The notes: generated by a model not told the origin, from the sequence alone. Counted from the first letter of the stretch, positions 2 through 16,442 are shown. The stretch is DNA of 64,000 bases from Lysobacteraceae bacterium (GCA_016789405.1 JAEUPQ010000034.1:1-64000), one strand, 5' to 3'. Made by a program: numbers and translations.

Positions 2-184
2 ATCGCGCCGGACGGCTCGGTCTACGTGCTGCACAACCGTTCGGGCGGCGGCACCGACAACATCAACCAGACCTACACGGTCAACCTGTCGGGCGAAGCG
101 CTGAACGGCACGTGGAAGCTCCGCGTGAACGACAACGCCAATGCCGATACCGGCTACATCAACAGCTGGAGCGTCACGTTCTGA
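2..184 (+). CDS. 3' end of a secreted protease-type protein: C-terminal P-domain (proprotein-convertase / pre-peptidase C-terminal beta-sandwich). Gene is 5'-truncated by the window edge
   Basis: Frame-2 translation IAPDGSVYVLHNRSGGGTDNINQTYTVNLSGEALNGTWKLRVNDNANADTGYINSWSVTF then stop. The G-x-W-x-L-x-V-x-D ... G-x-L-x-x-W-x-L pattern is typical of P-domains at the C-termini of secreted S8/M-family proteases. No start codon in window. Confidence 0.5.
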   Translation: MAPDGSVYVLHNRSGGGTDNINQTYTVNLSGEALNGTWKLRVNDNANADTGYINSWSVTF

Positions 185-246: not shown

Positions 247-1914
247 TCATTGCCGGCCCACGCGCGACGCGGCCCACGCCGCCAGCTTTTCCCGGCCGAT
301 CTTCGCGTTGTGGCGGATGTCGACCGGGAATGCCGCAGGGTGATGCAGGAAGGCATCGACCTTCGCCGTGTGCACGAATCCATCGCCGAGGTGGCGCAGT
401 TCCTCTTCGATGCGCGGCCATTCCTGTGCGGACACGCCCGCACGCAGCTCCACGCACAGCACCGCCCGCTGCGCACCGAAGGCGCCAACGCCGACCAGCG
501 CGGTGCGCCGAACCTCGCGATGGGTGTTGAACACCGGTTCGACCTGCTCGGTGCACAGCGTCGTCGTCGCGGTCACCACGCGCTGCGATTTCCGGCCGCA
601 GAACCACAGTCGGCCCTCGGCATCGAAATAACCGAGGTCGCCCATGCGATGCACGATGCGTTCGCCGCCATCGGCCAGCGTCTCGCGGATCTTCGCCAGG
701 CGGGTCTGCGCGTCGCGATTGAAGTACAGGTCGGTGGCGCTGGGGCCCGCGACCGTGATCTCGCCGACGATGCCGCCCTTCACAACCAGATCGTCGGACC
801 AGCCTTCAATCGCGTCGTCGGTGACGCGGATCAGGCGCACCTCGTTCGGCGGCACCGCGCGGCCGACGCAGGTGCCTGCGCCCTGCTCGGTGCGCTCGCG
901 CAGCGTGAGCAGCTCGCGTCCCTCGATGATCGCCACCGGCAGGCATTCGGTCGCACCGTAGGGCGTCCAGAAGCGTCCGTCCGGTGGCAACAACGACTGG
1001 ATCTTCGCGACGACGTCCGCCGGTACCGGCGCACCGGCCGACATCACCGTCTTGACCGTCTTCAGCGATTCGCCGTGATCGGCGAGCACGCGCATCAGGG
1101 CCGGCGAGCCGAACAACTGGTCCACGCCGAAACGTTCGATCGCCGCGTGCAGCTTGCGCGGGTTCGCTTTCGCCGGCCGCGTCGGGTCCATGTCGGGGAT
1201 GATCGACGTCGTGCCCAATGCCGGATCGAACAGCGCGAACGGCGGAAACGTCGGCAGGTTCACGCCGCCCGGCGCGATGCCGAAGGCCGCGCCCATCATT
1301 TCGATCTGCGCCACGAAATGGCGGTGCCGGTACACCACGCCCTTGGGCACGCCTGTCGAGCCGCTGGTGAACAGGATCGCGGCCACGTCGTCGGGCCGGG
1401 TATCGGCAAGCTGTGGCCCGGCGCCGGCGCCACTGGCTTCGACGTCCGCCAGCGTTGCATCCGCGAGGATCGCCCGCGCACCGGTGGTCACGCGAATGCG
1501 CGCGCTGCGCGCCCAGCGCAGCAGCACCCGCGCGAACTGCGCCAGCGGAATGCCGATGAAGGCCTCGGGTTTCGCCTCGTCCAGGCATTGCCGCAGCGCA
1601 CGCTTGTCGATGCCCGGATCCACCAGCACCGGCACGGCACCGGCCTTGAACAGGGCGAACATCAGCAGGAAGAACTCCGGCGTCGGCCGCACCATCACCA
1701 CCGTGCGCGTGCCCCGCGCGATGCCGCGCCTTGCCAGCCCGGCGGCGATCGCATCGCTGCGCGCGTCGAGCTGGGCATAGGTCAGGGCCACGTCGTAGCG
1801 GCCGGACGACCCGGGGCAGCGCATCGCCACCTGGTCGGGGCGCTCGCGGGCCAGGCGCGGCAGGCTGGCGGCGATGTTGCAGGCGGCGGCGGGCGTGTCG
1901 GACGATGGATTCAT
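247..1914 (-). CDS. oleC: AMP-dependent synthetase/ligase, OleC-like (olefin beta-lactone synthetase family)
   Basis: 555-aa ORF. Adenylate-forming enzyme motifs: TSGSTGVPKG (P-loop), YGATE, and a GDLGYxDxxGxLxxxGRK hinge. It lies next to an OleB-like hydrolase, with an OleA-like thiolase 11 kb upstream. High third-position GC. Confidence 0.75.
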   Translation of the reverse strand: MNPSSDTPAAACNIAASLPRLARERPDQVAMRCPGSSGRYDVALTYAQLDARSDAIAAGLARRGIARGTRTVVMVRPTPEFFLLMFALFKAGAVPVLVDPGIDKRALRQCLDEAKPEAFIGIPLAQFARVLLRWARSARIRVTTGARAILADATLADVEASGAGAGPQLADTRPDDVAAILFTSGSTGVPKGVVYRHRHFVAQIEMMGAAFGIAPGGVNLPTFPPFALFDPALGTTSIIPDMDPTRPAKANPRKLHAAIERFGVDQLFGSPALMRVLADHGESLKTVKTVMSAGAPVPADVVAKIQSLLPPDGRFWTPYGATECLPVAIIEGRELLTLRERTEQGAGTCVGRAVPPNEVRLIRVTDDAIEGWSDDLVVKGGIVGEITVAGPSATDLYFNRDAQTRLAKIRETLADGGERIVHRMGDLGYFDAEGRLWFCGRKSQRVVTATTTLCTEQVEPVFNTHREVRRTALVGVGAFGAQRAVLCVELRAGVSAQEWPRIEEELRHLGDGFVHTAKVDAFLHHPAAFPVDIRHNAKIGREKLAAWAASRVGRQ

Positions 1915-2018
1915 GCCTGCATTCTCTCGCGACCGGCGCGGTGCTTGCCAATCACGGCCGGAAGCGCAGAATCCCCGACCCGTCCCTGTCCTCGTGTCAT
2001 CGCCCCGGTTCGCCGCGC

Positions 2019-2378
2019 ATGTCGCATCCCTGCCTGTCCTGCGGCGCCTGCTGCGCCGCCTACCGCGTCAGTTTCCACTGGTCGGAGGCCGACCCGGCGC
2101 TGGGCGGCGTCGTGCCCGTGGAACTGACCGAAACCCTCGGCGCGCACCAGCGCTGCATGCGCGGCACATGGTCGGACCAGCCGCATTGCGTCGCACTGGC
2201 AGGCACGGTCGGCGAGGCCGCGCACTGCACCATCTACGAAGCGCGACCGTCGCCGTGCCGCGAACTGCGGATGTCGTGGGAAGACGGCTCGCCCAACCCG
2301 CAGTGCGACCGCGCACGCGCGCGCTACGGATTGGCGCCACTCACGCCGGAAGAGGCCGCGCGGGCGCGGGACCACTGA
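2019..2378 (+). CDS. YkgJ-family (UPF0153) cysteine-cluster protein, putative Fe-S/Zn-binding
   Basis: 119 aa starting MSHPCLSCGACCAAYRV, i.e. the CxxCGxCC signature of the YkgJ/UPF0153 family. The ORF track shows a longer 1731..2378 ORF, but the family-typical N-terminus begins at the ATG near 2019. It lies opposite-strand between the oleC- and oleB-like genes. Confidence 0.55.
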   Translation: MSHPCLSCGACCAAYRVSFHWSEADPALGGVVPVELTETLGAHQRCMRGTWSDQPHCVALAGTVGEAAHCTIYEARPSPCRELRMSWEDGSPNPQCDRARARYGLAPLTPEEAARARDH

Positions 2379-2412
2379 CTCGCCATCGACGCCACTCGGG
2401 GCGTCTGCGCCA

Positions 2413-3309
2413 TCAGACCGGATTGGCGTCCAGGAAGCGACGGATCGCCGGCACCAGCACCTCGTGCTTGTCTTCCAGCACGTAGTGGTGCGCATCGTGG
2501 AAGGCATGCACCTCGGCATTCGGCAGCGCGCGCTGGAAGCCTTCGAGGAAGTGCTGGTCGAACACGAAGTCCTGGAGCCCCCAGGCGATGAACGCCGGGC
2601 GGTCCGCATACGTCGGCAGGCGCTGTTCCGATGCCTTCAGCAATGCCCAGGCGGGATCGCCCTCGGCGAGCGGGATGTCCTGGACGAAACGCAGCGTGGA
2701 AATGCGGTTCGCCCACGAATCGTAGGGCGCGACGTAGCCGCGATAGACGTCCTTCGACAGCTTGCGCGACACGCAGTCGCGCGCGGTGCCGGCGGCGAAG
2801 GCATTGAACGCGCGGATCAGGAGCGCACCCAGCATCGTGTTGCGGCACAGGTTCAACTGCCACGGCATCGGCTTGGCCGCAGGCAGCGGGAACGCGGCGG
2901 TGTTGGTGATCACCAGTCGGCGCACCTGCGCCTGGTGCGACAGCGCCCAGCCGAAGCCGATCATGCCGCCCCAGTCGTGCACCGCCAGCGTCACCGGCCC
3001 GTCGATGCCCAGGTGTTCGAGCAGCCGCGACACGTCGTCGACGCGCGACTGCAGGGTGTAGGTGTAGCGGTCGTCGCCGGGTTTGTCCGACAAGCCCATG
3101 CCGACGTGGTCCGGCACGATGCAGCGGTACCGATCGCTCAAGCCCGACACCAGGTGCCGCCACAGGAAGCTCCACGAGGGATTGCCATGCAGCATGACGA
3201 CCACCTCGCCATCGCGCGGCCCCTCGTCGAGGTACGACATCGCGATGCCGGGGCGAACCTCGAAGCGGTTCGGTGTGAAGGGGTAATCCGGGAAAGTCTG
3301 CGGGGTCAT
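2413..3309 (-). CDS. oleB: alpha/beta-hydrolase, haloalkane-dehalogenase-like (OleB-like)
   Basis: The ORF track gives 518 aa, but the first 220 codons are an Arg/Pro-rich run typical of GC artefact. The real protein starts MTPQTFPDYPF at 3309, giving 298 aa. It has the HGNPSWSF (HGxP) oxyanion motif, a VHDWGG nucleophile elbow (Asp nucleophile, dehalogenase-type) and a C-terminal His. It is adjacent to oleC. Confidence 0.75.
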   Translation of the reverse strand: MTPQTFPDYPFTPNRFEVRPGIAMSYLDEGPRDGEVVVMLHGNPSWSFLWRHLVSGLSDRYRCIVPDHVGMGLSDKPGDDRYTYTLQSRVDDVSRLLEHLGIDGPVTLAVHDWGGMIGFGWALSHQAQVRRLVITNTAAFPLPAAKPMPWQLNLCRNTMLGALLIRAFNAFAAGTARDCVSRKLSKDVYRGYVAPYDSWANRISTLRFVQDIPLAEGDPAWALLKASEQRLPTYADRPAFIAWGLQDFVFDQHFLEGFQRALPNAEVHAFHDAHHYVLEDKHEVLVPAIRRFLDANPV

Positions 3310-3364
3310 GTCGGGGTCCGGGCCGGCACCGTGGACGGCGGCAGCCTTGCGAAACGAGGCCGCC

Positions 3365-3434
3365 AAGAATAAGGCCTGTGCCGGTTTTTGGCACCGAAAC
3401 CGCACCGAAAAGCGCCGAAAACGCGACTTCGGCC
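3365..3434 (-). repeat. three degenerate 11-bp tandem repeats GCGTTTTCGGC / GCTTTTCGGT / GCGGTTTCGGT (minus-strand reading) followed by a short GTGCC-N7-GGCAC hairpin; possible weak terminator or RNA element after the PLD gene
   Basis: Plus strand reads ...gcctgtgccggtttttggcaccgaaaccgcaccgaaaagcgccgaaaacgcg... The TTTTCGG-type unit occurs three times at about 11-bp period. The stem is 5 bp only, so this is weak as a terminator. Coordinates approximate. Confidence 0.3.
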
Positions 3435-4145
3435 TCAGCGATCTCCGCCGTATGCGGCCCACAGGCGCTCGAAGCGCTCGGCGAAGGCCCGGACCAGGCG
3501 GACGTCGTCGGTGACGATCAGGTTTTCCTCGTTGCCTTCGGTGGCGCTGCGGGTCCAGTTGAAGCTGCCGGTGGCCAGGCGGCGTCCGTCGAACAGGGCG
3601 AACTTGTGGTGCATGTGGAAGGCGCTGGCGTCCAGCCTCACGGGCAAGCCGTGGTCGCGCAGGCGCAGCATGTCGCTGCCGGCATCGTGGACCTTGTGGT
3701 CGTCGCCGATGATGCGTACCGCGACGCCGCGCGCGTGGGCGTCGGTGAGCGCCGAGGTGAGCCGGTCGTCGGAGACGGTATAGACGCAGACATCGATCGC
3801 GCGCTTCGCGCCGAGGCACAGCTCGCGCAGCTTGCGCAGGCAGTCCTCGCCCGGCGAGAACCAGGCATTGGCATCCACCGGCGGCGGATCGGCGACTGCA
3901 TCGAGGGTGCGCACGACCTGCTCCAGCCATCGCAGCAGGTCCATCGGTGCGAACGCCGGATCCGACCACCGCTCGCGCACCAGGTCGAAGGCACGATTGC
4001 GCAGATACCGGACGCGGTCGCGCGCGAGCCCGGCGCCGAGCTGTCGCAGCTCGAGTTTCTCGTCATCGTCCAGCACCGCGTCCGCCGCGCTTTCGCGCAG
4101 CAGGCGATCCAGTTCGGCGAAATCGATCCGGGCCGCGTCGCTCAC
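3435..4145 (-). CDS. phospholipase D-family protein with a single HKD motif (Nuc-like endonuclease or single-HKD phospholipase / cardiolipin-synthase-like), with an N-terminal ~100-aa helical extension
   Basis: 236 aa. It contains HMHHKFALFDGRRLATGSFNWT, i.e. HxK(x)4D(x)6GSxN, the canonical HKD catalytic motif, present once. Single-HKD proteins act as dimers. The GTG start overlaps the stop of the upstream giant gene (GTGA), implying translational coupling. Confidence 0.75.
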   Translation of the reverse strand: MSDAARIDFAELDRLLRESAADAVLDDDEKLELRQLGAGLARDRVRYLRNRAFDLVRERWSDPAFAPMDLLRWLEQVVRTLDAVADPPPVDANAWFSPGEDCLRKLRELCLGAKRAIDVCVYTVSDDRLTSALTDAHARGVAVRIIGDDHKVHDAGSDMLRLRDHGLPVRLDASAFHMHHKFALFDGRRLATGSFNWTRSATEGNEENLIVTDDVRLVRAFAERFERLWAAYGGDR

Positions 4146-7100
4146 CGCGGCGTCCGTCCGAGCAGGCGGTCCGAGAATTCCTCCAGCGCCTTCTGCAACT
4201 GCACTTCGCGTTCGCCCGGCGGCACCAGGGCCTCTTCGCCCGGGGCCCGACGACGACGCGTGCCTGCGGCCGGTGCCGCCTTCATCGCTTCGGTCTGCGC
4301 GGTGATCCGTTCGGCGATCAGCGCCATGACCTGCTGCAACTGCACCTGCTGTTCGGCATGCCGCTCATACCACTCCGGCATGGGCGGCTGCGCAGCCGGC
4401 GGCGCGGCTTCGGGTGAGACCACGCGCGGTGCGGCCATCGCTTCGGACAACCGCTCCAGCGATGCGAGGATCTGCGCCCACGGTGCCGGCTCGGGAGGTG
4501 CAGCAGGCGTTGCGGGCGCACGTTCGCCCAGCTTCTCGAGACCGCGTACGCCTTCGACCAGGTCGGCCAGCTGCGCGACCACGCGCGGGCCGACCTCGGC
4601 ATCGTCGGACCCCATCGCCTTGTTGCGCAGGAAGTCGCGCTTGATCTGCGCCCAGCGCGCAGCCTGGGTTTCGCTCATCACTTCGCGCAGTTCCGCGAGC
4701 TTGAGCAGGTTCTCCTCGGCGCCGGTGGTGAGCAGCTGCGATTCGCCCTGGTAGTGGTCCGCGATGAGCTGCTGCAACTCCGCGGCATTCATCACCGGCG
4801 AGATCTTCTCGGCGAGCTTGTTCATGTTGCGGTAGCTGCCCTGCAGCTTGAACGACGGCTCGGTGCGGTACTTGTCGGCCTGCGCGGCGCTGGCGATGTA
4901 CTGCTGGTTGACGCGGTAGACCACTTCGCGCACCTGCATGAGACGCTCCAGTGTCGCGGTGATCTCGTTGATCTCGGCCGCGCTGTAGGCATGGCTGAGG
5001 CTGTTCGCCGAGAAAGGCTTGCCCGCGATCTTGTCGACCAGCTTGTAGAGATCGCCGAGGTCGCGCGTGGCCAGCGGCGCCAGCACGGCATTGGAGGTCA
5101 GGCAGTTCTCGACATAGCTCAGCTTGAAGGCCTCTTCCATGCCGCCCAGCACGTCGCCGAGGTTGTAGATGTCGGCACGGTTGGCCAGCATGTCCGGGAT
5201 CTTGAAGACCTCGCCGGACTCGGTGTACGGGTTGCCGGCCATGACCACGCAGAATTTCTTGCCGCGCAGGTCGTAGGTGCGGGTGCGTCCCTGCCACACG
5301 CCTTCGATGCGGCGGGTGCCGTCGCACAGCGAGATGAACTTCTGCAGGAACTCCGGGTGCGTGTGCTGGATGTCGTCGACGTACAGCATCACGTTGTTGC
5401 CCATCTCCAGCGCGAGGTTGAGCTTTTCAAGCTCCTGTCGCGCGGCGGCATCGGGTGCCTGTGCCGGGTCGAGCGAACGCACTTCGTGGCCCAGCGCCGG
5501 GCCATTGATCTTCATGAAGATCAGGCCGAGCCGGTGCGCAACGTACTCCATCAGCGTGGTCTTGCCGTAGCCCGGTGGCGAGATCAGCATCAGCATGCCC
5601 ATCAGGTCGCTGCGCTTGCTCTCGCCGACCGTGCCCATCTGCTTGGCCAGGTTGTCGCCGATCACGCCCAGGTAGACATCGTTGATGAGCTTGTTGCGCA
5701 CGAACGAACTCAGCGGACGCGCCTTGAATTCCGACAGGCGCAACGCCTCGCGCTCGCGCGCGACCAGCGCCTGGCGCAACGCATGGCAGCGCCGGAACTT
5801 CGGCAGGAAATCCGAACGATGCCGGCGCAACCGCTCGGCGATATCGTCGACGCCCAGATGGATCGTGCCCGCCGCGATGCGCGGATGCTCGCCGAGCAGG
5901 CCGGCGACGCTCGCGCGCAGGTCGACCTCGACCACCTTCGACAAGGCCTCATCGCCGAGCAGCAGCAGGGCCACCGCTTCCGGCAGATAGTCGATGAGCG
6001 ACGCCTGCGCGGGATCCTGCGCCAGCGCATCGAACCAGTGCCGCGCCAGGTGCCAGCGCGCGGCAGGCTGCTCGCGCAGCGCGTTGAGGGATGCCTGCAG
6101 GTCGTCCCAGAGTCGTTCGGCGACCAGGCGCTGCCGCAAGGCCTCGTGCAGCTGTCGAGCATACTTGCTGAATGCGAAGGACTGGTGCTGCGTGGCGATC
6201 ACGGCGATCAGGTAGTCGGCAGCCGGCGCGCACAGCGCTTCGTCCACGGGCAAACCCTGCGCCTGTGCTTCGGCGTGCATCGCGAGGGCGATCTCGTCGC
6301 GCAGGCTGACCAGTCCGCCACGGTGCGAAAACACGCGATCGATGCTCGTGGCATTGCGCGCACGGTCCGCCCAGAGCCCGGCGTCCTCGCGATCACGGAC
6401 GCTCGACCAGAACAGGCTCGCCCACGCGCGCGCCGCTGGTGCATGCACCAGCAAGCCGGCGCTGTCGCGCAGCGGCAGCAGCGCCGCCAGCAGCAGGGCG
6501 GCATCGTGGTCGTGGATGCCTTTCTCGTACCCGTCGCGATAGCGCGACGCGGAGAATTCGCGGATCGTCTTCGACAGCAGCTCCGGCTGCTTCGCCTGCT
6601 GGCGCAGCAGGTCGAGACTCAGTCCTTCGCGGCCGGCCTCGGCCGCATCGATGACTTCGCCCAGCAGGTACTCGGCGCGATAGAGCTGCGGCGACTCCGA
6701 CTCCAGGCCCAGCGACCAGAAGTCGCGCAGCGCGTCGAGTTCCGCGTCGCGCACCGGCGAGAAGAACTCGGTACCGGTCAGGTGCAGGGCAAGGCCATCC
6801 TCGCGCGGCAGCACCGTGAGATCGAGCTCCTGGGTGTTGACGCTGAAGCGGTGTCGAGGGCCGAGCTTGATGACGTTGCCGCCTTCCTCGAACAGCTCGG
6901 TGCGGTCGCGCAACGCGCGCACGGCCTGGTCGCGCACGCCCTTGAGGCGCGCGTCGATGTCGTCGGCCTTCACCGAATCCTTGAGCGCGCGCAGGCGATC
7001 GGCCAGGTCGCGCAGCTTCAGGATCAGCGCATCGCCGGCGAAGAAGGCATTGAGTTCGTCCATGCCCGAGAGCCGCGCAGTGCGCCTGCCGAGTCCGTCG

Positions 7101-9481
7101 AGGATGCGCGATGCCGCGTCGGCCAGCGACTGGGTCTTGCGCTGGCGCTCGTCGAGCAGCGATTGCTTGTGCGTCTCGAAGGTGTCGAGCAGTTCGTCGC
7201 GCTTGGCGACGATGTCGCCGAGGAACTGCTCGTGCTCGCCGAACTGGCTTTCGAGTTCCTCCAGCTGGATCATCAGCCGCGACAGTTCCTGGTCGCAGCG
7301 CTCCGGGTCCCGCGAAGAAGCCAGCGCACTGGCGATGCTCTGTCCGAACAGCGTGAACTGCGCGCCGAACTGGGCCACGGCTTCGCTCGATCCCAGAGCC
7401 TTGCGGCGCTGGTCCGCGCGCGCCTTGGCCTGGTTGAGCTTCGCGTAGATCTCGGAGATGGTCTCGACGATCCGCGTGCGCCGGGTCGCGTCGTCCACCT
7501 TCAACGTCGCCATCAACTCAGACAGCACGTCCAGGTCCGTGGACAGCGCCTGCATTCCCTGCAGCGGCGTCTGCAGCGCAGTCACGCTGGCCGCCTTCTG
7601 CGCTTCGCCATCAAGCGACTGCAGGCGTTCCGAGAACGGATGCAGCGCCTTGTCTCCCGCGAGGAATCCACTCGTGGCCTCGCCGACCTGCGTCTGCGCG
7701 GCGAGCAACTCCGCCTCCATCGCGTCGACGGCGGCCACGTCGACATAGCGCTGCTCGCGAAGCGTCAGCAGGCGCCCGCGCTGCGCAGTGATCGCGTTGA
7801 GTGCATCGACGCAATCCTGGACCTTTTCCCAGCTGTCCGGATGCAAGCCGCCCAGCAGCGTCTTCTGTCGCTCGGACGCGTCGCGCATCGCGTCCGCGGA
7901 CTGGCGACGGATGCTCTCGACCTTTTCGTACTCGTCGAGCACGGCCTCGCTGCTGGCGACGATCTCGCGCAGCAGCGGCGCCAATCCATCGCAATGCCGG
8001 TCCTCGATCCAGTGGTACTGGTCGAACAGGCGACGTGTGGTCTGGGTGAGCAACTGGTAGCGCTGCGCCGACACGTCGGCGGTGTCGATCTCGCGCGCGA
8101 GACTCAGCAGGTCGGAGATGCCGCGCACCAGTTCAGGGTTGCCGATGCGCCCCATGAACGTATTCGCCGCGGGCGCCTTCGCCACATGGTCGTCGAAGGC
8201 GAACGGCGTCTGCCACACCTGCATCGGATGGATCTTCGTCGGCTCGCTGCTCTGGGCCGTGAAGATCACCATGCGCCCGTCTTCCAGCCGCGCATAGCCA
8301 TGACCGATGATCGGCGGCTGCATGCCCCGCTGGATCGTGTTGTAGACGAACAGCGCGACGCGGCCATCCTGCGGCTCGTAGAACAGGTACAGCACGTCCT
8401 CGCCATTGGGCGAGCGGATCTTGCGCTTGAAGCGCATGCCTTCGACGGCCTGGTCGAACGTGCGGGTCTCGCCATTCTGCAGCATGTAGCCACCGGGAAA
8501 GACGATGCCGTGGTCGTCCGGCAACTGCACGCAGGCCTGGCCGATGGCATCGATGCGATGCACCTTGCCTGAAATCGTGTTGTAGGCCAGGTGGCGCCAC
8601 TGCTGTTCCCGGTACGGCAGGACCTTCAGCAGCACGAGACTGCCGACCCGCGCGAAGTCGACCTGCGCGTCGTCGAGCGACTGGGTCTTGTCCTCCACCG
8701 GCTCGCGGTAGATGCCCAGTCCATCCTCGGTGTTGTTCTCGACCTTGATCGTCAGGTCGCCATTGACCGTCTCGACGAACAAGGTATCGAGGATGTTGAG
8801 GTGCGGGTGCCGGCCGTTGACGGCCATGTCGCGCGTCGCGCGCATCCATTCGAAGTCGTAGGGCGCCGGCAGGGCGATGTCGCGCTCACCCCGGTTGTCG
8901 ATGTAGCGCACGCCGCTGCCGTCGACATGCCAGCGGAAGACGCGCATGTCCTCGATGCGCTCGCCGATCTGGAACGCCGCCAGCAACTTGTCGTCGCGCA
9001 CCACCAGCTGCAGGAGCTTCGTGTCCTTGTAGTAGGCGTGCAGCTCGGTGAAGTCCTTCACGAACGCGGCTTCGCCGAGGAAACTCGCCGACGCGGCGAC
9101 GGGCGTCACGTCGTAGCCATCGGCGCCTTCGACCAGACGGTACAGCGAGAACACGTCCTCGATCCGGGTCTCCTTCTTGAGCCCGATGAAGACGTTGTAG
9201 CCGAAGAGCAGGCAATCGCCGACCTGCACGATGTCGCGTGCGACGCAGTTGTGCTCGGTGCGGATGCGCAGGCGCCCGACGACCTCCATCCGGCTGCTGC
9301 CGAACTCCTGCAGCCGCTGCGTGTTCAGGCCCTCGGCGAGGACACGAAGTTGCGCGCCCTGGTCGCCGAGACGCTTGCGCAGCACGTCATAGGCGCCGCC
9401 TTCGGCGACGGCCTTGTCGACTTGCGACACAGCGAGAGCTGCACCGTCCGTATTCGCACTTGTCGTGGTGTTTTCCGCCAT
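4142..9481 (-). CDS. giant (1779 aa) cytoplasmic protein: N-terminal beta-rich region (~450 aa), ~600 aa of predicted coiled coil, a helical region, one AAA+ ATPase module (Walker A at about residue 1305), and a Pro/Ala/Gln-rich coiled-coil tail; family not recognised
   Basis: ATG start with GGAAG upstream. AAA+ motifs appear in canonical order and spacing: Walker A ISPPGYGKTT; Walker B VMLYVDDIQ about 55 aa later; sensor-1 and arginine finger CVVMAGNPYTESGEVFKIPDMLANRADIY about 45 aa after that. Heptad-like charged repeats (for example ELLAAQTQVGEATS..., LEELESQFGEHEQFLGDIVAKRDELLDTFETHKQSLLDERQRK). No TM segments seen. High third-position GC throughout. Confidence 0.8.
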   Translation of the reverse strand: MAENTTTSANTDGAALAVSQVDKAVAEGGAYDVLRKRLGDQGAQLRVLAEGLNTQRLQEFGSSRMEVVGRLRIRTEHNCVARDIVQVGDCLLFGYNVFIGLKKETRIEDVFSLYRLVEGADGYDVTPVAASASFLGEAAFVKDFTELHAYYKDTKLLQLVVRDDKLLAAFQIGERIEDMRVFRWHVDGSGVRYIDNRGERDIALPAPYDFEWMRATRDMAVNGRHPHLNILDTLFVETVNGDLTIKVENNTEDGLGIYREPVEDKTQSLDDAQVDFARVGSLVLLKVLPYREQQWRHLAYNTISGKVHRIDAIGQACVQLPDDHGIVFPGGYMLQNGETRTFDQAVEGMRFKRKIRSPNGEDVLYLFYEPQDGRVALFVYNTIQRGMQPPIIGHGYARLEDGRMVIFTAQSSEPTKIHPMQVWQTPFAFDDHVAKAPAANTFMGRIGNPELVRGISDLLSLAREIDTADVSAQRYQLLTQTTRRLFDQYHWIEDRHCDGLAPLLREIVASSEAVLDEYEKVESIRRQSADAMRDASERQKTLLGGLHPDSWEKVQDCVDALNAITAQRGRLLTLREQRYVDVAAVDAMEAELLAAQTQVGEATSGFLAGDKALHPFSERLQSLDGEAQKAASVTALQTPLQGMQALSTDLDVLSELMATLKVDDATRRTRIVETISEIYAKLNQAKARADQRRKALGSSEAVAQFGAQFTLFGQSIASALASSRDPERCDQELSRLMIQLEELESQFGEHEQFLGDIVAKRDELLDTFETHKQSLLDERQRKTQSLADAASRILDGLGRRTARLSGMDELNAFFAGDALILKLRDLADRLRALKDSVKADDIDARLKGVRDQAVRALRDRTELFEEGGNVIKLGPRHRFSVNTQELDLTVLPREDGLALHLTGTEFFSPVRDAELDALRDFWSLGLESESPQLYRAEYLLGEVIDAAEAGREGLSLDLLRQQAKQPELLSKTIREFSASRYRDGYEKGIHDHDAALLLAALLPLRDSAGLLVHAPAARAWASLFWSSVRDREDAGLWADRARNATSIDRVFSHRGGLVSLRDEIALAMHAEAQAQGLPVDEALCAPAADYLIAVIATQHQSFAFSKYARQLHEALRQRLVAERLWDDLQASLNALREQPAARWHLARHWFDALAQDPAQASLIDYLPEAVALLLLGDEALSKVVEVDLRASVAGLLGEHPRIAAGTIHLGVDDIAERLRRHRSDFLPKFRRCHALRQALVAREREALRLSEFKARPLSSFVRNKLINDVYLGVIGDNLAKQMGTVGESKRSDLMGMLMLISPPGYGKTTLMEYVAHRLGLIFMKINGPALGHEVRSLDPAQAPDAAARQELEKLNLALEMGNNVMLYVDDIQHTHPEFLQKFISLCDGTRRIEGVWQGRTRTYDLRGKKFCVVMAGNPYTESGEVFKIPDMLANRADIYNLGDVLGGMEEAFKLSYVENCLTSNAVLAPLATRDLGDLYKLVDKIAGKPFSANSLSHAYSAAEINEITATLERLMQVREVVYRVNQQYIASAAQADKYRTEPSFKLQGSYRNMNKLAEKISPVMNAAELQQLIADHYQGESQLLTTGAEENLLKLAELREVMSETQAARWAQIKRDFLRNKAMGSDDAEVGPRVVAQLADLVEGVRGLEKLGERAPATPAAPPEPAPWAQILASLERLSEAMAAPRVVSPEAAPPAAQPPMPEWYERHAEQQVQLQQVMALIAERITAQTEAMKAAPAAGTRRRRAPGEEALVPPGEREVQLQKALEEFSDRLLGRTPR
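5130..5615 (-). other. AAA+ ATPase module inside the giant protein (Walker A GYGKTT at about 5548-5580)
   Basis: By-eye motif mapping: PPGYGKTT ... LYVDDIQ ... VMAGNPYT ... DMLANRADIY. Coordinates approximate (plus or minus a few nt). Confidence 0.6.
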
Positions 9482-9699
9482 GTCTTCCGATCGTCGCTGT
9501 CAGTGGCGCGGCGACTACGACCCCGCGCCGATTTCAAGGGAAATGCTTGTTGCCTGTCGGCACTGCAACCATGACGGGTTCGAACGCCATCGATTTCCAC
9601 CGTCTTCGACGGCCATCGTCTGCTCGGAACCGTTCACCAACGGTACGCAGGAACCCTGGCGCCGATCCACCCGGCATTGCATTTTCGATGCTCTGCGCG

Positions 9700-10287
9700 T
9701 CACGCACCCGTGCTGACCGCTGCCATTTTGTCGCATGGCCCGGACACACCCTGCTTCCGCCTGATCTCATCCGGCCCCATGGCCGCTGCCGTGCCTGATT
9801 GGTGGGATGCTGGAACCCATTCACGCACCTTCTGCTCTTTCAAGACAACGGCATCGACGTACGTGACGGCTTTCGATTTCGTGCAGATGATCACGAGTGC
9901 GAATCGCCCGCCCCCCATGTCCAGCGCACTGGCGTCCATGGCTTCTGCAGATGCGACCTTGCGGACGTCGACGGAGCCCATCGCATCCTTCCTGGCAGCA
10001 AGGCGTGCTTCGAAGTCCCGGTACTCGTTCGCGTCTCGATAGGCTTTCAGCATCCCGGTCCAGAGCTGCTCGTACATGGCCCGGTCGGCCATTTCCACAT
10101 AGCGCATCGCCGCGAGTGTCGCTCCTTCCCGCTCGACTGCTCTCAGTGCGACCACCGTTCCTTCGAAGTCAAGCGATTCCTCCTGCCCTGCATGGACTTC
10201 GCCTGCAAGGACTTCGCCTGCATCGCCGCATCCCGAGACCAGCATCGTCGCTCCCAGCACCATCGCCATCATTGCGGTACGAATCAT
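9700..10287 (-). CDS. putative lipoprotein of unknown function
   Basis: The ORF track gives 9700..10317 from a TTG. The in-frame ATG at 10287 (MIRTAMMAMVLGATMLVSGCGDAG) gives a typical lipoprotein signal peptide with lipobox LVSGC and a GAGGAA RBS about 10 nt upstream. The C-terminal part is low-complexity, so the true stop and extent are uncertain. Confidence 0.45.
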   Translation of the reverse strand: MIRTAMMAMVLGATMLVSGCGDAGEVLAGEVHAGQEESLDFEGTVVALRAVEREGATLAAMRYVEMADRAMYEQLWTGMLKAYRDANEYRDFEARLAARKDAMGSVDVRKVASAEAMDASALDMGGGRFALVIICTKSKAVTYVDAVVLKEQKVREWVPASHQSGTAAAMGPDEIRRKQGVSGPCDKMAAVSTGA

Positions 10288-10415
10288 GTTTGCCAATTCC
10301 TCATGAGATCTGTTCAACGGGGGATGGAGCGGACAACACGGATCTCGACCGAATCATCGCCGCGCTCGGCGACGACGATCCGCGCGGAGCCTCGCATCGA
10401 CCGCCGGGAGCTGGA

Positions 10416-12404
10416 TCAAGCTTCTTCCGGTTCCACGGCCTTCTTCCCACCCACCTGCATCGACAGCAGCTTCTGCAGCACTTCCTGCACGATCGGACTC
10501 TTGCCGGCGACGCCTTCCACCGCCTTGCCGACCGACAGCGCCTTGGCGAACGAGTCGAAGAACGCACCTTCGCCGCCGACGATGTCGATGTTCGCCTTGG
10601 CCAGCGCGGTGGACAGCACCTCGGCCTGCTCGCGCGCGATCTCCTTGTTCGCTTCGATCGAGGCCAGCGCCTGCTCGAAGTTCTTTTCCAGCTGCATGCG
10701 GAACTCCTCGTGCGCACGCGCCTGGTCGCTGAGCGAGCCCAGCGCGCCGAACTTCTCGGTCAGACCCTCGGCCTCCGAGCGGTACTTCTGGCGCATCACT
10801 TCGGCCTCGCTGAAGCCGACGTCCTTGGTGACCTTCGCCTGCGCCTCGCCCAGCTGCGTTTCGCCGCGCGCCTTCGCTGCCAGGTTCTCTTCGAGTACCT
10901 TCGCGTCGGCGAGGCCCTTGTCCTGCGTGCCGCGCGCTTCCGCGGCCAGGGTTTCGGCGACCACGCGCGCCTTGGCCAGGCCTTCCTTCTCGAGCGCCGC
11001 CGCGGTGATCTCGCGCACGCGCGCATCGGCCAGACCGGGCGCCGCGCGCTCGGCTTCGATACCTTCCGCCATGCGCTTCTTCGCCTCGGCCTGCTTCGCA
11101 GCCGCTTCCAGTTCGGCCTGCGCGATCACGGTCAGCTCGACCGCCTTGTGCTTCGATGCCTGCTCGTCGGCTTCGGCCTGCTTGACCTGGCGCACCAGCT
11201 CTTCTTCGGCCTTGGCCTGCGCGGCGAGGATCGTCACCTGCTTCTTGCGATCGGCCTCGGACACTTCACGCACTTCCTTGATGCGCTCCTGCTCCAGCGC
11301 CACGGTCTTGTCGACGGCGACGCGCTCGCGGACCACGTTGGCGATGTCCTTGCGCTGGATCTCCAGCGCCTTTTCCTTCTCGATCTTCTGCAGCTCGACC
11401 TCGCGCTCGCGAGACACGATCTCGAGTTCCTTGGCGCGCGTGACCTTCTCGACCTCGATCACGACGGCACGCTGGCGATTCTGCTCGGCCACTTCGACTT
11501 CGCGCAGCCTGTTCTGGTCGCGGATGTCGAGCTGCTCCTGGGTCGCCAGGCGCGCCTGCTCGGCCTTGAGGCGCTCTTCTTCCTGCACCTTCAGCGTTTC
11601 GGCTTCTTCGCGCGCACGAATCGTTGCGATCTCGCGCTTCTGGCGCGCCTCGGCATCGGCCTGCTGGCGCTCCAGCGCGAGCATCGCCTCGCGCGTCTCG
11701 ACGTTCTTCTTGGTGATCGCAAGTTCCTCGTTGCGCGCCAGCTCGTTGGTGATGACGTTCTGCGCGGCGGTGAGCTCGGTGATCTTGCGGATGCCTTCGG
11801 CGTCGAGGATGTTGCTCGGGTCGAGCGAGTTCTTCGGCGTCTGCTCCAGGTAGTCGATCGCGACGTCTTCCAGCACGTAGCCGTTGAGGTCGTTGCCGAT
11901 GACCTGGATGATGCGGTCGCGGAACTCCTGGCGGTTCTCGAACAGCTTCACGAAGTCGATCTGCTTGCCGACCGTCTTCAGCGCTTCGGAGAACTTCGCG
12001 TTGAACAGCTCGTTGACCGCGACCTTGTCGGACGCGCGGTCGACGCCGATCGCCTTGGCCACCTTCAGCACGTCCTGCGCGGTCTCGTTGACGCGCAGGT
12101 AGAACGCGACGGTGATGTCGGCACGCATGTTGTCCTGGCAGATCAGTCCGTCCTTGCCGCGGCGATCCACTTCGAGGGTGATCAGCGAGATCCGCATGAA
12201 CTCCTTCTTGTAGATCACCGGATAGACCAGCGCACCAGTGAAATGCACCTTCGGCGTCGACGACATGTCGTTGACGATCAGCGCCGTGCCCTGCGGCACC
12301 TTGATGTAGAAGGCCTTGAAGAGGCCGACGATGCCGAGCAGCATCACGATGATGGCGCCCGTGATTGTTAGGAGCATCATGACGTTCGGACCCAGGTCGT
12401 TCAT
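10416..12404 (-). CDS. flotillin-like SPFH/band-7 protein (YqiK family)
   Basis: 662 aa from ATG at 12404, with a strong AGGAGGAA RBS 7 nt upstream. It has an N-terminal TM helix, then an SPFH domain (KVPQGTALIVNDMSS...ITLEVDRRGKDGLICQDNMRADITVAFYLRV), then a very long EA/K-rich coiled-coil/flotillin region. The extra N-terminal codons in the track ORF (GTG at 12455) are rejected. Confidence 0.85.
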   Translation of the reverse strand: MNDLGPNVMMLLTITGAIIVMLLGIVGLFKAFYIKVPQGTALIVNDMSSTPKVHFTGALVYPVIYKKEFMRISLITLEVDRRGKDGLICQDNMRADITVAFYLRVNETAQDVLKVAKAIGVDRASDKVAVNELFNAKFSEALKTVGKQIDFVKLFENRQEFRDRIIQVIGNDLNGYVLEDVAIDYLEQTPKNSLDPSNILDAEGIRKITELTAAQNVITNELARNEELAITKKNVETREAMLALERQQADAEARQKREIATIRAREEAETLKVQEEERLKAEQARLATQEQLDIRDQNRLREVEVAEQNRQRAVVIEVEKVTRAKELEIVSREREVELQKIEKEKALEIQRKDIANVVRERVAVDKTVALEQERIKEVREVSEADRKKQVTILAAQAKAEEELVRQVKQAEADEQASKHKAVELTVIAQAELEAAAKQAEAKKRMAEGIEAERAAPGLADARVREITAAALEKEGLAKARVVAETLAAEARGTQDKGLADAKVLEENLAAKARGETQLGEAQAKVTKDVGFSEAEVMRQKYRSEAEGLTEKFGALGSLSDQARAHEEFRMQLEKNFEQALASIEANKEIAREQAEVLSTALAKANIDIVGGEGAFFDSFAKALSVGKAVEGVAGKSPIVQEVLQKLLSMQVGGKKAVEPEEA

Positions 12405-12480
12405 TGCGTTTCCTCCTGATCTCTCATTGCATTGTTCGTTCGCTGCACCGCCCACGGAATCCGGGCATCGGCACAGATGG

Positions 12481-13176
12481 TCATATTTCTTCGAATTCCG
12501 TCGTCGACGTCACCCGATAGGCGTTCTGTTCATCCAGGTATTCGATCAGCACGACGCGATCGCCCCTCACGAAACGGCCTGGTACGTCGCAACGCACCTG
12601 CAGGATCAATCCGGCGCCGCCGTCATCGACCCAGGCGGTACCGTGCGTGTGCGTGATCTCCGGGCTGCGCACCTCGGCATAGCGGCCGAGCAACGGGCGC
12701 TGCGTGACCGGTTCGTAGCGGCGCAGCAGCCTGCGCACCGGGGCCAGCACCATGCGCCCGACCGGGATCGACAACAGCAGGCCACCGAACATCGTCGCGA
12801 TCGCGGCCAGCGTGGCGCCGATGCCTTCGGGCATCGCACTGATCACATGCAGGTCGACCATGAAGCAGAACGACCAGCCGACGATGGCGATGATCGTGAA
12901 GACCACCATCACCGGTACGCCGTGCAGACCGAACTTCATCAGGAAGCCGCCGAAGCTGCCATGGTCGCCGTGCGCATCGTGCGAACCGTGCGCGCCATGC
13001 GCTCCGTGGGCACCGTGCATGGCATCGGCGCCGATGTCGTCCGGCAGCAGGCCATCCAGCGCGTCGAGCTCGAGGATGCCCAGCGCCGACAGCAGCCAGT
13101 GCACGGTCACCACCAGCAGCAGCACGCTGTACACGACGGTCGGGAACGATGTCACGACCTTCAGGAACACTTCCAT
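12481..13176 (-). CDS. YqiJ/NfeD-like inner-membrane protein (partner of flotillin), with a His-Gly repeat loop
   Basis: 231 aa. Two TM segments. A C-terminal OB-fold-like region (GRYAEVRSPEITHTHGTAWVDDGGAGLILQVRCD...GDRVVLIEY) as in NfeD/YqiJ proteins. GGAGG RBS upstream. Contains HGAHGAHGAHGSHDAHGDHG. Confidence 0.7.
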   Translation of the reverse strand: MEVFLKVVTSFPTVVYSVLLLVVTVHWLLSALGILELDALDGLLPDDIGADAMHGAHGAHGAHGSHDAHGDHGSFGGFLMKFGLHGVPVMVVFTIIAIVGWSFCFMVDLHVISAMPEGIGATLAAIATMFGGLLLSIPVGRMVLAPVRRLLRRYEPVTQRPLLGRYAEVRSPEITHTHGTAWVDDGGAGLILQVRCDVPGRFVRGDRVVLIEYLDEQNAYRVTSTTEFEEI

Positions 13177-13249
13177 CTCGCCTCCCCTCTTCTCGCGGCG
13201 CGTTTCATCGCCGCCTGCCCCTTGCCGAAAACTACGCCTTGCTCGTCCG

Positions 13250-14011
13250 TCATTCGTCCTGCCGATCCTTCAGGCGCGACAGCACGGCCTCGGTGCGATC
13301 CTCTTCCGCGATGATGCCGGCGCGTCGCAGCCGTGCTTCGAGCGATGCGTCGAGTTCGTCGCCCGCCTCGACCTTCAGCGCATCCAGTGTCACGCCACGT
13401 TCGGCCTGCCTGCGCTTGATGCGCTCGAGCGAATCCAGCGCGGTCCGCACGCGACCATCCGAATCGCGACGCCGCTGCGCCATCGCGACCTGCGCGCGCT
13501 GCACGGTTTCCGTCGCGCGCACGGTGTCGACCTGCTGCTTGAGTCGACCGATGTTCGCCTCGAAGTTCGCCGCGACCTTGCGCAGCTGCGCGATGCCGTC
13601 GGTGAATTCCCGCACCTGTGCGGCGTGGCCGTCGCGCTCGATCTCCAGCAGGGCGATGTGTCCCGCGACGTCGCGGGCCAGCGCGTCCTCGCCGGACTTC
13701 AGCGCCTTCAGCGCATAGCCCTCGTATTCCTCCAGCCTGGCGTTCGCCGAGGCGAGGCGCTCCTGCGCGACCTTGCAGCGCGCCATGGTCTCGGCCAGCG
13801 TCGTGCGCACGCGGCGCAGTTCGGCGTCGTTGTCGCGGATCTCCTCGTCGAGGATGCGCAGCGCCTGGCTGTCGGCAATGACATCGCCCAGCCCGTCGAC
13901 ACCGCCACGCACCGCCGCGACCAGGCGGCGCCACAGCGCGGACGGCTCCGGCACGTCCGTCGTTTCGATTTGCGGCTTCGACTTGCGTCCGCCCTGCGCC
14001 TTCGTGCTCAT
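13250..14011 (-). CDS. PspA/IM30/Vipp1-family protein (ESCRT-III-like; YjfJ-type paralog)
   Basis: The track ORF is 462 aa, but the real start is MSTKAQGGRKS at 14011, giving 253 aa. The ATG overlaps the yjfI-like stop (ATGA). The protein is all-helical with charged heptads, for example MARCKVAQERLASANARLEEYEGYALKALKSGEDALARDVAGHIALLEIERDGHAAQ. Confidence 0.85.
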   Translation of the reverse strand: MSTKAQGGRKSKPQIETTDVPEPSALWRRLVAAVRGGVDGLGDVIADSQALRILDEEIRDNDAELRRVRTTLAETMARCKVAQERLASANARLEEYEGYALKALKSGEDALARDVAGHIALLEIERDGHAAQVREFTDGIAQLRKVAANFEANIGRLKQQVDTVRATETVQRAQVAMAQRRRDSDGRVRTALDSLERIKRRQAERGVTLDALKVEAGDELDASLEARLRRAGIIAEEDRTEAVLSRLKDRQDE

Positions 14012-14448
14012 GCGGCCTCCCGCAGGTGCCATTCGTAGGCTTCGGTGGCGCGGATGACGTTGTCGGCGAGCGTTTCCATCTCGAACAGCACGTCGGCGAG
14101 CGAGGACGCCGAGCTGAGCGCGCCGAACATGATGTAGACCGCTTCGCCGTCGATCGTCTCGATGCCGAGCGTCGACAGCGGGAACAACTTGTGGGTCCGC
14201 AGCAGCTCTTCGTTGAAACCGGCGGCATCGCGGACCTGGGACACAGGCCAGAGCATCGCTTCGACGACGATCTGCCGACCGACCACGGCCATGTACAGCG
14301 GCAGGTCGCCGTAATCGTGCATGGTCAGGTACAGGCCGGGCTCGGCGCCGTCGATCAGCTCGGCCGTGATCACGCCAAGGCGCGCGCCATCGCTGGCGAC
14401 CAGGGCGTCGTGCAGGGCCTTCGCGGTCCACAGGGTCTTGTCGGGCAT
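14008..14448 (-). CDS. YjfI-like protein (DUF2170), conserved partner of PspA-family yjfJ
   Basis: 146 aa from MPDKTLW, preceded by a strong GGAAGGAGAG RBS. LLRTHKLFPLSTLGIETIDGEAVYIMFGALSSAS matches E. coli YjfI LLQTHKLVPLSTVGINTLNGEEYYIAFGALSSQS. The track's extension to 14670 starts at a TTG that is actually a TTGACA -35-like hexamer. An in-frame upstream ATG at about 14634 cannot be fully excluded. Confidence 0.7.
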   Translation of the reverse strand: MPDKTLWTAKALHDALVASDGARLGVITAELIDGAEPGLYLTMHDYGDLPLYMAVVGRQIVVEAMLWPVSQVRDAAGFNEELLRTHKLFPLSTLGIETIDGEAVYIMFGALSSASSLADVLFEMETLADNVIRATEAYEWHLREAA

Positions 14449-14639
14449 GGCGAGCTCTCCTTCCGTCGGCGCCGCCGGCGAGGGCCCGCCTCGCGGCAGG
14501 CGCATCCGCCGCTCCACGGCCGCCAGTTCGTCGGCGTATTCGGGCAACACCCACAACTCCTTCTTCACCAGGCCCTGCTCGCGCAGGCGGTCGCGATGTC
14601 GTCGCTGGTAGAAGGCGGAGCTGCGGCGTTCCATGCATC

Positions 14640-14700
14640 GATCATGAATGTCACATGTGAGGACTGTCAATCCATCACATGTAACGTCCGGACGAACGGC
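14640..14700 (-). promoter_or_regulatory. putative promoter/operator of the yjfI-pspA-flotillin block: TTGACA -35-like hexamer flanked by two copies of TCACATGT(G/A)A (the first a perfect 10-bp palindrome)
   Basis: Minus-strand reading: ttacatgtgatggaTTGACAgtccTCACATGTGAcattcatgatc. A repeated palindromic element overlapping -35/-10 suggests a repressor operator. Coordinates approximate. Confidence 0.35.
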
Positions 14701-14717
14701 AACGCCGACCCTCAGGC

Positions 14718-14750
14718 AAAGAAAAACCCCGGCCGGGGCCGGGGTTTCGG
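14718..14750 (-). terminator. rho-independent terminator downstream of the oleA-like gene (GC hairpin CCCCGGCC..GGCCGGGG followed by TTTTTCTTTG on the minus strand)
   Basis: Plus strand reads caaagaaaaaccccggccggggccggggtttcgg. A perfect 8-bp GC stem, then a T-run in the gene's direction. It separates oleA from the downstream co-directional block. Confidence 0.5.
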
Positions 14751-14779
14751 GTGCCGCGAGAACGCATGAGGCCGGGGAA

Positions 14780-15802
14780 TTACCAGACCACTTCCGCCAT
14801 CGAGCAGTTCAGGCCCGAGCCGATGCCCAGCAGGGCGACGCGGTCGCCCTTCTTGAGGCGGCCCATCTCGCGCAGCTTGCTGAGCACGATCGGTACCGAG
14901 GCCGGGCCGATGTTGCCGTGTTCGCCGAAGATGGTCAGGACCTTCTTGGGGTCGATGCCGAAAGCCTGGATGAAGGCCTGGGTGTGGACCTTGCTGACCT
15001 GGTGGATGACGAACTCGTCCATCTCGTCGACCGCCCAGCCCAGCGCCTGCTTGGCGGCGATGAAGGTCTTCTGCGCCAGCTTCAGGCCCTCGGTGAGCAG
15101 CATCTTGGTGTCGGTGACCATGCGGTCGAGGTTGCCGCGGCAGAGGGTGTTCCACTGCGTGGCGGCGCGCGTGACGCCGCCGCGATAGCGCGGCGCGCCC
15201 GGGGCCAGCTCGGCGCGGGCCAGGACCATGGCGGCGGCGCCGCAGCCCAGGGTCAGGGTCGCCATTTCGTTGCGGAACTCTTCCTCGGTCGCATCCGGGC
15301 GAGTCATGCGCTCGATGGTCTTCTCGTAGGCGAGGTTCGCGGTTTCGCCATCGACGATCAGCGCGTAGTCGATCTCGCCGCGCTCGATCATGCGGCTGGC
15401 GATGTCCATGCCGTTGAGGAAGGCGAGACAGGCGTTGGCCACGTCGAAGTTCTGGCAGGTATCGGGCAGGCCGAGGTTGCCGCTGACGATGCTGGCCGTG
15501 GACGGCTCCAGGTAGTCGCGGCTGACCGAGGTGTTGACCAGCAGGCCGATGCGCGAGGGGTCGATGCCGGCGTCCGCCAGCGCCTTCACGCCGGCGAGGG
15601 TGGCGGCGTCGGACGCCTGCACCTCGTCGTCCCAGAGGCGACGGGAATGAATGCCGGCGACGTCTTCCAGGACGTTGGCCTTGATGCCGAGGCGATCCAG
15701 AGTCGGCTTGAGACGGGCGTTGATCTCGGCACTGGTGAGCTGACGCGGAGCGTCGATGTGGGCCAGGCCGGCGATAGCGACGTGTTGGAACAGCATGGGC
15801 AA
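14780..15802 (-). CDS. oleA: FabH-like thiolase, OleA-like (olefin biosynthesis head-to-head Claisen condensing enzyme)
   Basis: 340 aa. Thiolase/KAS-III fold with an active-site Cys in NACLAF, a later His in IHQVS, and GNIGPASVP (the Asn region). The N-terminus MPMLFQHVAIAGLAHIDAPRQLTSAEINARL resembles Xanthomonas OleA. The oleB/oleC-like genes are 11 kb downstream. Confidence 0.75.
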   Translation of the reverse strand: MPMLFQHVAIAGLAHIDAPRQLTSAEINARLKPTLDRLGIKANVLEDVAGIHSRRLWDDEVQASDAATLAGVKALADAGIDPSRIGLLVNTSVSRDYLEPSTASIVSGNLGLPDTCQNFDVANACLAFLNGMDIASRMIERGEIDYALIVDGETANLAYEKTIERMTRPDATEEEFRNEMATLTLGCGAAAMVLARAELAPGAPRYRGGVTRAATQWNTLCRGNLDRMVTDTKMLLTEGLKLAQKTFIAAKQALGWAVDEMDEFVIHQVSKVHTQAFIQAFGIDPKKVLTIFGEHGNIGPASVPIVLSKLREMGRLKKGDRVALLGIGSGLNCSMAEVVW

Positions 15803-15966
15803 AGGGCCATGAGACAGTCAGGAACCGTATAGGTTACCGCCTTCGATACCCGGCCGCATGCAAAAAGGGCCCCGGCTGTCGCATTTTTGACCACCGGTCC
15901 CGAAATCGGCCGCCCCGGACAAGCCTCCAGGGCCACGGCAGGCCTGCGGAGACCGCCCGTCGGCGG

Positions 15967-16284: not shown

Positions 16285-16442
16285 CGGGAACTCCGTGAGG
16301 ACGACGAACGGACTGGCAGAAACACGATGCCCGCCATGATGGCGGGCATCGCGTGAACGTCACAAGGCGCGAAGCGATCAAAACACTGTCGATTCACCGA
16401 TATCAGCCGCCCGCGCGGCCTTGACGCCGTCGGCGCTCATGG

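Follow-up and report, generated by a model that had tools for sequence, protein, structure and literature searches.

In head-to-head olefin biosynthesis, OleA condenses two acyl-CoAs, OleD reduces the resulting beta-keto acid, OleC closes a beta-lactone, and OleB decarboxylates the latter to the olefin. The subject here is the ole gene set of a Lysobacteraceae bacterium, as found in a stretch of 64,000 nucleotides (nt) (JAEUPQ010000034.1:1-64000; the window, from here on, in which minus-strand features are transcribed right to left), and in particular the block of seven genes (3435-14634, 11.3 kb) that separates oleA from oleB in it. Gene sets of this kind have been described as "oleABCD clusters with 0 to 3 intermediate genes" (Robinson et al. 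2020, PMC7064751). According to the same source, the ole region of X. campestris has two additional genes, belonging to the families PF13784 and PF03692, and that of Luteimonas only the PF03692 gene. An earlier interpretation of this DNA, made from the sequence alone (the sequence-only reading), had taken the ole genes to be contiguous in known Xanthomonadaceae, which is too strong a claim in view of the two extra genes of X. campestris. With respect to the X. campestris and Luteimonas clusters (structures 3ROW and 4KTI), the window keeps orthologous enzymes and the order oleA, oleB, PF03692 gene, oleC. In those clusters at most one gene separates oleA from oleB (Fic in X. campestris); in the window there are seven, the gene after oleC is not oleD (which in the closest relatives of the window lies about 5 kb further), and the cluster appears split into several transcription units. 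Rather than a contiguous oleABCD, then, the window presents the 11.3-kb block, 498 bp between oleB and oleC in which a gene runs on the opposite strand, and no oleD following oleC. Very probably, these are true ole orthologues whose cluster was split by an old, vertically inherited membrane-stress operon, with oleD displaced beyond the left edge of the window.

The inserted block itself has a described counterpart. Ravi et al. 2024 (PMC11237479) describe, on computational grounds, an operon pairing CesT/Tir (DUF2170) with PspA, which also encodes a transmembrane (TM)-band-7-flotillin protein, a novel AAA+ ATPase and a YqiJ/YuaF-like 3TM protein, and which includes a PLD hydrolase in some Proteobacteria. 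The block resembles this operon in content and order (DUF2170, PspA, a small multi-TM protein, a flotillin/YqiK-like protein, a giant AAA+ ATPase and PLD) and in being widespread as a stand-alone operon; it differs from it in lying inside a lipid-biosynthesis cluster and in carrying an extra DUF4019 gene. Going by family names and source annotations, it also resembles a fusion of two E. coli gene pairs, yqiJK (NfeD-like plus flotillin) and yjfIJ (DUF2170 plus PspA paralogue), to which a 1779-aa DUF3686 AAA+ ATPase and a PLD hydrolase have been added. The sequence-only reading had spoken of seven unrelated genes: seven they are, but not unrelated, since six of them form this known operon type.

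For comparison, an OleC scan with one genome per species gave 80 Lysobacteraceae loci (best match, Lysobacter sp. BL-A-41-H3, 94%), and a scan of metagenomes with the flotillin-like protein gave another 80; labels such as L003 or L085 denote these fetched homologous loci, either genomes or metagenome contigs. Read in the direction of transcription, all on the minus strand, the module opens with a DUF2170 gene (YjfI family, CesT/Tir-like; 14008-14634; PF09938, E 2.6e-50). The DUF2170 domain comprises only residues 69-204 of its product, the N-terminal ~60 aa being weakly MazE-like (E 0.017), and it might be speculated that this N-terminal extension is a DNA-binding domain that autoregulates the operon. 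The second gene encodes PspA/IM30 (bacterial ESCRT-III-like; 13250-14011; PF04012, E 7.7e-40), and its ATG, with the start read from the sequence, overlaps the DUF2170 stop codon (ATGA). The third (12481-13176) encodes a 231-aa membrane protein with no family match, whose sequence, inspected by eye, shows about three hydrophobic stretches and, at the C-terminus, a beta-rich domain. This gene precedes the flotillin gene in module loci, its position being kept, and on inspection and position its product is a candidate YqiJ/NfeD-like flotillin partner, which fits the YqiJ/YuaF-like 3TM component of PMC11237479. The next gene (10416-12404) encodes a 662-aa flotillin/YqiK-like membrane protein, with an N-terminal hydrophobic, transmembrane segment followed by a long coiled-coil-like region. 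Sequence searches of Pfam and the PDB gave no match for this protein, so that the band-7 and beta-propeller domains mentioned in PMC11237479 are unconfirmed for the window proteins. Its assignment comes from inspection of the sequence and from its close homologues, which NCBI and JGI call "flotillin family protein" or "YqiK"; across loci it is 75-97% identical.

After the DUF4019 gene, to which we return below, comes the large ATPase of the module (4142-9481; 1779 aa), composed of DUF3686 (PF12458, 668.7 bits), DUF7902 (PF25472) and an AAA_5/AAA domain at residues 1297-1424. A literature search for DUF3686 returned no papers; the order flotillin gene, then DUF3686 gene is conserved in about 66 metagenome loci. 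The last gene (3435-4145) encodes a hydrolase of the PLD/HKD superfamily (PF13091 PLDc_2, E 5.6e-29) and directly follows the DUF3686 gene in 29 of the 66 metagenome loci carrying the ATPase gene, mostly loci without ole genes. Just after it, a terminator-like hairpin (3414-3433, minus strand) marks the end of the inserted operon. An anti-phage defence function was considered for the module and rejected, PADLOC giving only weak DrmC-like matches for the PLD gene and nothing for the other genes.

As for the ole genes, the coordinates, strand and pathway order that the sequence-only reading had given for oleC, oleB and oleA were all correct when read again. The product of oleC (247-1914, minus strand), an olefin beta-lactone synthetase with a PF00501 AMP-binding domain, scores 1026.7 bits against the NCBIfam equivalog for the Xanthomonas-type enzyme (NF045786, "olefin beta-lactone synthetase"; cutoff, 900), and is 74-94% identical to that of the 80 Lysobacteraceae loci. 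The oleA gene (14780-15802, minus strand), whose true start is likely the ATG at 15796, encodes a non-decarboxylative Claisen-condensing thiolase that scores 472.1 bits against NF006720/PRK09258 (cutoff, 285; residues 3-340 covered) and matches solved OleA structures from Xanthomonas (3FK5, 3ROW, 4KTI and others; E about 5e-185) along its entire length. In the alignment to the first two of these, the motifs YLEPST, ANACLA, VIHQVS and GEHGNIG are all kept. The catalytic residues Glu117, Cys143, His285 and Asn315, in the numbering of the X. campestris construct (native residues 97, 123, 265 and 295), are conserved. Between both genes, the product of 2413-3309 (minus strand) is an alpha/beta hydrolase of the haloalkane-dehalogenase-like kind, and the title of Christenson et al. 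2017 places OleB in that family. PF00561 and the haloalkane-dehalogenase models score under their cutoffs; the HDWGG nucleophile motif (Asp) is present, haloalkane-dehalogenase structures are matched at E about 1e-36 to 1e-40, and the gene occupies the orthologous position beside oleC in those loci of relatives that include it. It is assigned as OleB by family plus synteny, no curated OleB model existing, and its beta-lactone decarboxylase activity is predicted.

Against relatives, the ratio of nonsynonymous to synonymous divergence (dN/dS) is 0.10-0.26 for oleA, 0.04-0.25 for oleB and 0.09-0.20 for oleC: the pathway genes remain under purifying selection. Could they nonetheless be paralogues with another role, as the sequence-only reading had also suggested, or the remains of a decaying pathway that has lost oleD, with ketones or beta-lactones, rather than olefins, as possible products if OleD and OleB did not act together? 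In favour of this stand the lack of OleD in the window and of an OleB model by which that enzyme could be confirmed, together with the two relatives without a nearby oleD that are mentioned below. Nevertheless, OleC passes its equivalog, OleA has intact catalytic residues and strongly resembles the characterised enzyme of Xanthomonas, the flanks are orthologous, the dN/dS values are low, and oleD is near in the closest relatives (L003 and L004). All this makes such a scenario very improbable, and the three genes are best read as true orthologues of the head-to-head olefin pathway, from which olefin production by the organism would be expected.

The comparison with relatives shows what the cluster looks like without the block. 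Upstream of oleA (15834-20245; Pfam assignments), the window has a conserved flank consisting of a small hypothetical ORF, an M16 peptidase gene (16443-19337, minus strand) and a classical SDR gene (19550-20245, plus strand), and the same order, SDR-M16-(small ORF)-oleA, is found in relatives with compact clusters. In these (e.g., L024, L056, L063, L065, L073 and L077), SDR-M16-oleA-oleB-(ykgJ)-oleC-oleD follow one another with gaps below 100 bp. On the other hand, the module lies directly upstream of oleB in 16 species-level genomes (L003, L005-L008, L010-L013, L015-L017, L022, L025, L031 and L032), while four further short loci show only its PLD end. The interrupted layout is also present on about 10 metagenome contigs, three of which (L085, L087 and L089) carry (M16/SDR)-oleA-module-oleB-oleC each on a single contig. 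The proposal that a module had been inserted into an ancestral ole cluster thus stands, as compact relatives share the flank and the module stands alone elsewhere; what does not hold is that the insertion was recent. The synteny comparison put forward in the sequence-only reading gives the same double answer, since oleABCD is indeed compact in many relatives lacking the block, but the same interruption with conserved flanks in at least 16 genomes points to an old, stable organisation.

The junction between oleA and oleB is not reserved for this module. Its cargo consists of Fic, an MmeI-type restriction-modification enzyme and Bro-N in L030; of TauE, a PIN toxin, an Rce1-like protein, a hydrolase and UPF0149 in L036; of UPF0149 and GST in L041; and of GDPD, ADH and a VCPO-like gene in L082. 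The oleA-oleB spacer is therefore a permissive landing site which has received varied cargo across lineages.

How old is the insertion in the window? A neighbour-joining tree of the flotillin-like protein groups every ole-linked copy in a single clade, and the ole and module genes have diverged to a similar extent. Synonymous divergence (dS) from L003 is 0.35 for OleC, 0.37 for OleB, 0.33 for the flotillin-like protein, 0.44 for DUF3686 and 0.41 for PLD; from L006, it is 0.61-0.76 for ole and module genes. This matched synonymous divergence argues for an old insertion inherited vertically, and taken together the data point to one such event followed by vertical inheritance. Base composition leads in the same direction. 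The window has a GC content of ~67%, with real genes distinguishable by a GC content at third codon positions (GC3) of 0.8-0.9, and the GC3 and codon usage of six of the seven block genes are host-like. The comparison of GC and codon usage between block and flanks, which the sequence-only reading had proposed, therefore sets the block apart in one gene only, that encoding DUF4019.

The DUF4019 gene (9700-10317, minus strand; PF13211) sits between the flotillin and AAA+ genes (9482-10415), with its own promoter-like site at 10296-10268. Its GC3 is 0.68, compared with 0.85-0.89 in its neighbours, it is an outlier in codon usage, and it coincides with a local dip in GC. Among all the fetched loci only L003 also has one, and in L005 the flotillin and AAA+ genes are about 115 bp apart. 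This gene is a later, single-gene addition inside the module, in the lineage of the window and L003. A recent, strain-specific and horizontally acquired island, as an explanation for the whole block, could invoke precisely that local GC dip (around 9.5-12.5 kb) and the block having a promoter and a terminator of its own. It is hardly tenable, though: the block is common to many species with matched dS, its composition is host-like in all genes except that for DUF4019, the only one that looks recent, and no mobility genes, tRNA or flanking repeats were found.

The old insertion appears to have kept its own regulation. As the sequence-only reading had it, oleA is followed by a terminator and then by a new promoter, and consensus matches were found for both: a terminator-like hairpin with a T-run at 14725-14740 (minus strand), and a module promoter region at 14641-14681 (minus strand), where TTGACA-18-CATGAT is flanked by two TCACATGTGA boxes. 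The promoter-like element (14670-14641, minus strand) agrees with the consensus in 10 of 12 positions, and the two TYACATGTGA boxes bracket its -35-like TTGA(CA) at 14647-14681 (minus strand). Of 58 module loci (among L084-L162), 37, belonging to diverse lineages, have these boxes upstream of the DUF2170 gene, versus none of 58 control regions; they did not appear in the part of the text of PMC11237479 that was examined. Judging by the conservation of their sequence, the boxes are a candidate operator of the module. In the module promoter a TAGNCT -10-like element is followed by ATG only about 8-10 nt on, and the transcript may be leaderless. As for the hairpin after oleA, comparable structures with a T-run follow this gene in compact clusters (L029, L037, L038, L073, L061 and L063), which suggests that this GC-rich terminator predates the insertion and is ancestral. 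Since a hairpin lies between oleA and oleB even in compact clusters, oleA may generally be transcribed apart from oleBCD, or attenuated.

Because of its conserved promoter boxes and its stand-alone occurrence, the block would constitute an autonomous, separately regulated operon. About 66 of the 80 metagenome flotillin loci have this operon on its own, with no ole gene in the surrounding 10 kb. An alternative is that the PspA/flotillin/AAA+ operon has been kept in the ole cluster because membrane hydrocarbons and flotillin/PspA organisation cooperate, for example with olefins tuning membrane domains, with the module sensing the hydrocarbon load, with flotillin and PspA assemblies organising or buffering hydrocarbon-rich membrane regions, or with co-expression by read-through. 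If true, such coupling would explain the persistence of the linkage across species, as well as the second flotillin module near oleD in some Luteimonas. Indeed, the layout is stable in at least 16 species, with the module sharing strand and orientation with the ole genes, and both gene sets concern the cytoplasmic membrane (PMC7064751 and PMC11237479). Furthermore, L041 and L074 have a second, distant and abbreviated flotillin module a few genes beyond oleD. On the contrary, ole genes are absent from the 10 kb around most module loci, and most ole clusters (among the 80 Lysobacteraceae loci) have no module; in other lineages, unrelated genes, restriction-modification and toxin genes among them, occupy this junction; terminator-like hairpins delimit the module, which has retained conserved promoter boxes of its own; the second module of L041 is separated from oleD by SDF, ubiJ and ubiB; and the top results of a full-text search included no paper on flotillin with Ole genes. 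Functional linkage, in any of these forms, is thus considered unlikely, and an autonomous operon lodged in a permissive spacer remains the preferred reading.

With regard to the second Luteimonas-like module just mentioned, it occupies 16567-21614 in L041 and 7545-13550 in L074, is divergent and abbreviated (YqiJ-like, flotillin and DUF3686 AAA+ genes, with no DUF2170/PspA), and lies after oleD-(SDF)-ubiJ-ubiB. These loci were considered as the source of the window module and rejected, their flotillin gene being the most distant lineage in the tree.

The remaining pathway gene, oleD, would have been separated from the others by a second event. OleD is a 2-alkyl-3-oxoalkanoate reductase, an extended SDR of the 3beta-HSD type. 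No match for the OleD of L024 was obtained in the 64-kb window by tblastn at E<=1e-3, and Pfam searches on all its 300-370-aa ORFs gave no OleD candidate. Both agree with the sequence-only reading, which had reported no OleD in the window and had assigned the SDR at 19550-20245 to another subfamily; that gene was rejected as OleD, since it encodes a classical short SDR and is conserved in the flank of relatives. Beyond oleC, the window holds only the 3' end of a trypsin-like secreted protease gene convergent with oleC (2-184, plus strand; translation ending in ...SWSVTF*), and between the two genes there is a GC-rich hairpin of 12 pairs (216-243) that looks like a bidirectional terminator. This 3' end shares 81-91% identity with the C-terminal end of the protease encoded after oleC in L005, L006, L009, L010, L012-L014 and L085; in relatives, that protease gene opens the insert lying between oleC and oleD. 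While in most relatives oleD comes straight after oleC, in another set (L003, L004, L009-L011, L013-L017, L022 and L031) it is encoded on the same strand 1.4-8.5 kb after it. In the two closest relatives of the window the distance is 5.0 kb (L003) and 5.1 kb (L004). The genes lying in between in L003, on the opposite strand, are those for a trypsin-like protease, DUF4197 and a TonB-dependent receptor, with ubiJ and ubiB after oleD; similarly, L163-L168 show oleC-protease-DUF4197-oleD. The homologues of the L003 OleD came from other samples, not from closer relatives. Since the window begins with the end of that protease gene and oleD is displaced in relatives having it, oleD probably lies, by analogy, a few kb beyond the left edge of the window. 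Its absence is best explained by the end of the window plus a second insertion.

Several observations weigh against the picture of a single old insertion and a displaced oleD. The promoter and terminator calls are consensus matches only. Scans for insertion scars (Rfam, tRNA and repeats) yielded only chance-level GC-rich matches, and no IS element, integrase or mobility gene. In the neighbour-joining tree of OleC, L031, L032, L095 and L096 are set apart from the main module clade, and the compact locus L020 is nested within it; as this tree has no support values, a single insertion with occasional loss or recombination is what we infer from these placements. In addition, no oleD is seen in L025 or L033 within 10 kb of oleC, so that the oleD of the window organism, too, may have been lost or may be located further away. 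Lastly, the exact OleC of the window was found only on two 2-kb Logan contigs, and the organism's own oleD was not recovered.

The most probable course of events is the following. In an ancestor of the Lysobacter/Thermomonas-like clade, a six-gene membrane-stress/remodelling operon would have entered the short oleA-oleB spacer, landing downstream of the terminator that already followed oleA and bringing along its own regulated promoter and terminator. Since then it would have been inherited vertically together with the ole genes, with the DUF4019 gene entering the module later in the window/L003 lineage. Separately, an insertion of opposite-strand genes would have moved oleD a few kb downstream of oleC. 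As a consequence of these insertions, the pathway would be spread over several transcription units and no longer form one compact cluster.

Since the insertion is old and shared, the arrangement is a stable organisation, and the case as a whole is one of ordinary, if extreme, gene-order plasticity in a known pathway, with no change to the known biochemistry of the Ole enzymes. Even so, fragmentation of the ole clusters in Lysobacteraceae goes far beyond the published "0 to 3 intermediate genes", and searches demanding a contiguous oleABCD would miss or mis-score olefin producers in this family. The window also provides a well-delimited, vertically inherited example of the uncharacterised DUF2170-PspA-flotillin-AAA+-PLD operon, complete with a conserved candidate operator, which may aid experiments on that operon.

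Other elements of the region have a history of their own. The sequence-only reading had noted a YkgJ-family gene in a spacer of about 500 bp between oleB and oleC, and this proved right: the spacer measures 498 bp and the gene (2019-2378, plus strand) matches the CxxCxxCC family PF03692 (E 4.6e-9), being divergent from oleC and convergent with oleB. About 50 of the 80 Lysobacteraceae loci showed a gene of this type in the same spacer, and that of the window is the already known PF03692 passenger of Xanthomonadales ole clusters. In relatives, the oleB-ykgJ/oleC spacer also holds varied cargo, such as an FAD-dependent monooxygenase in L164 (404-1663) or, in L068 (about 8827) and L078 (about 9201), a lone PLD gene that is 57-59% identical to the module PLD and occurs without the module. 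A different rearrangement is seen in a Luteimonas subgroup (L042, L046, L049, L053, L055, L058 and L062), where oleC-oleD have lost their oleA/oleB neighbours and M16 and SDR are inverted upstream; in L058, oleB is 8.9 kb away. As for the protease encoded beside oleC, the window and L012 (13367-14554) share the ending ...SWSVTF, and the C-terminal region of the L003 protein (11866-13083) differs, a sequence difference that points to a swap of the C-terminal domain.

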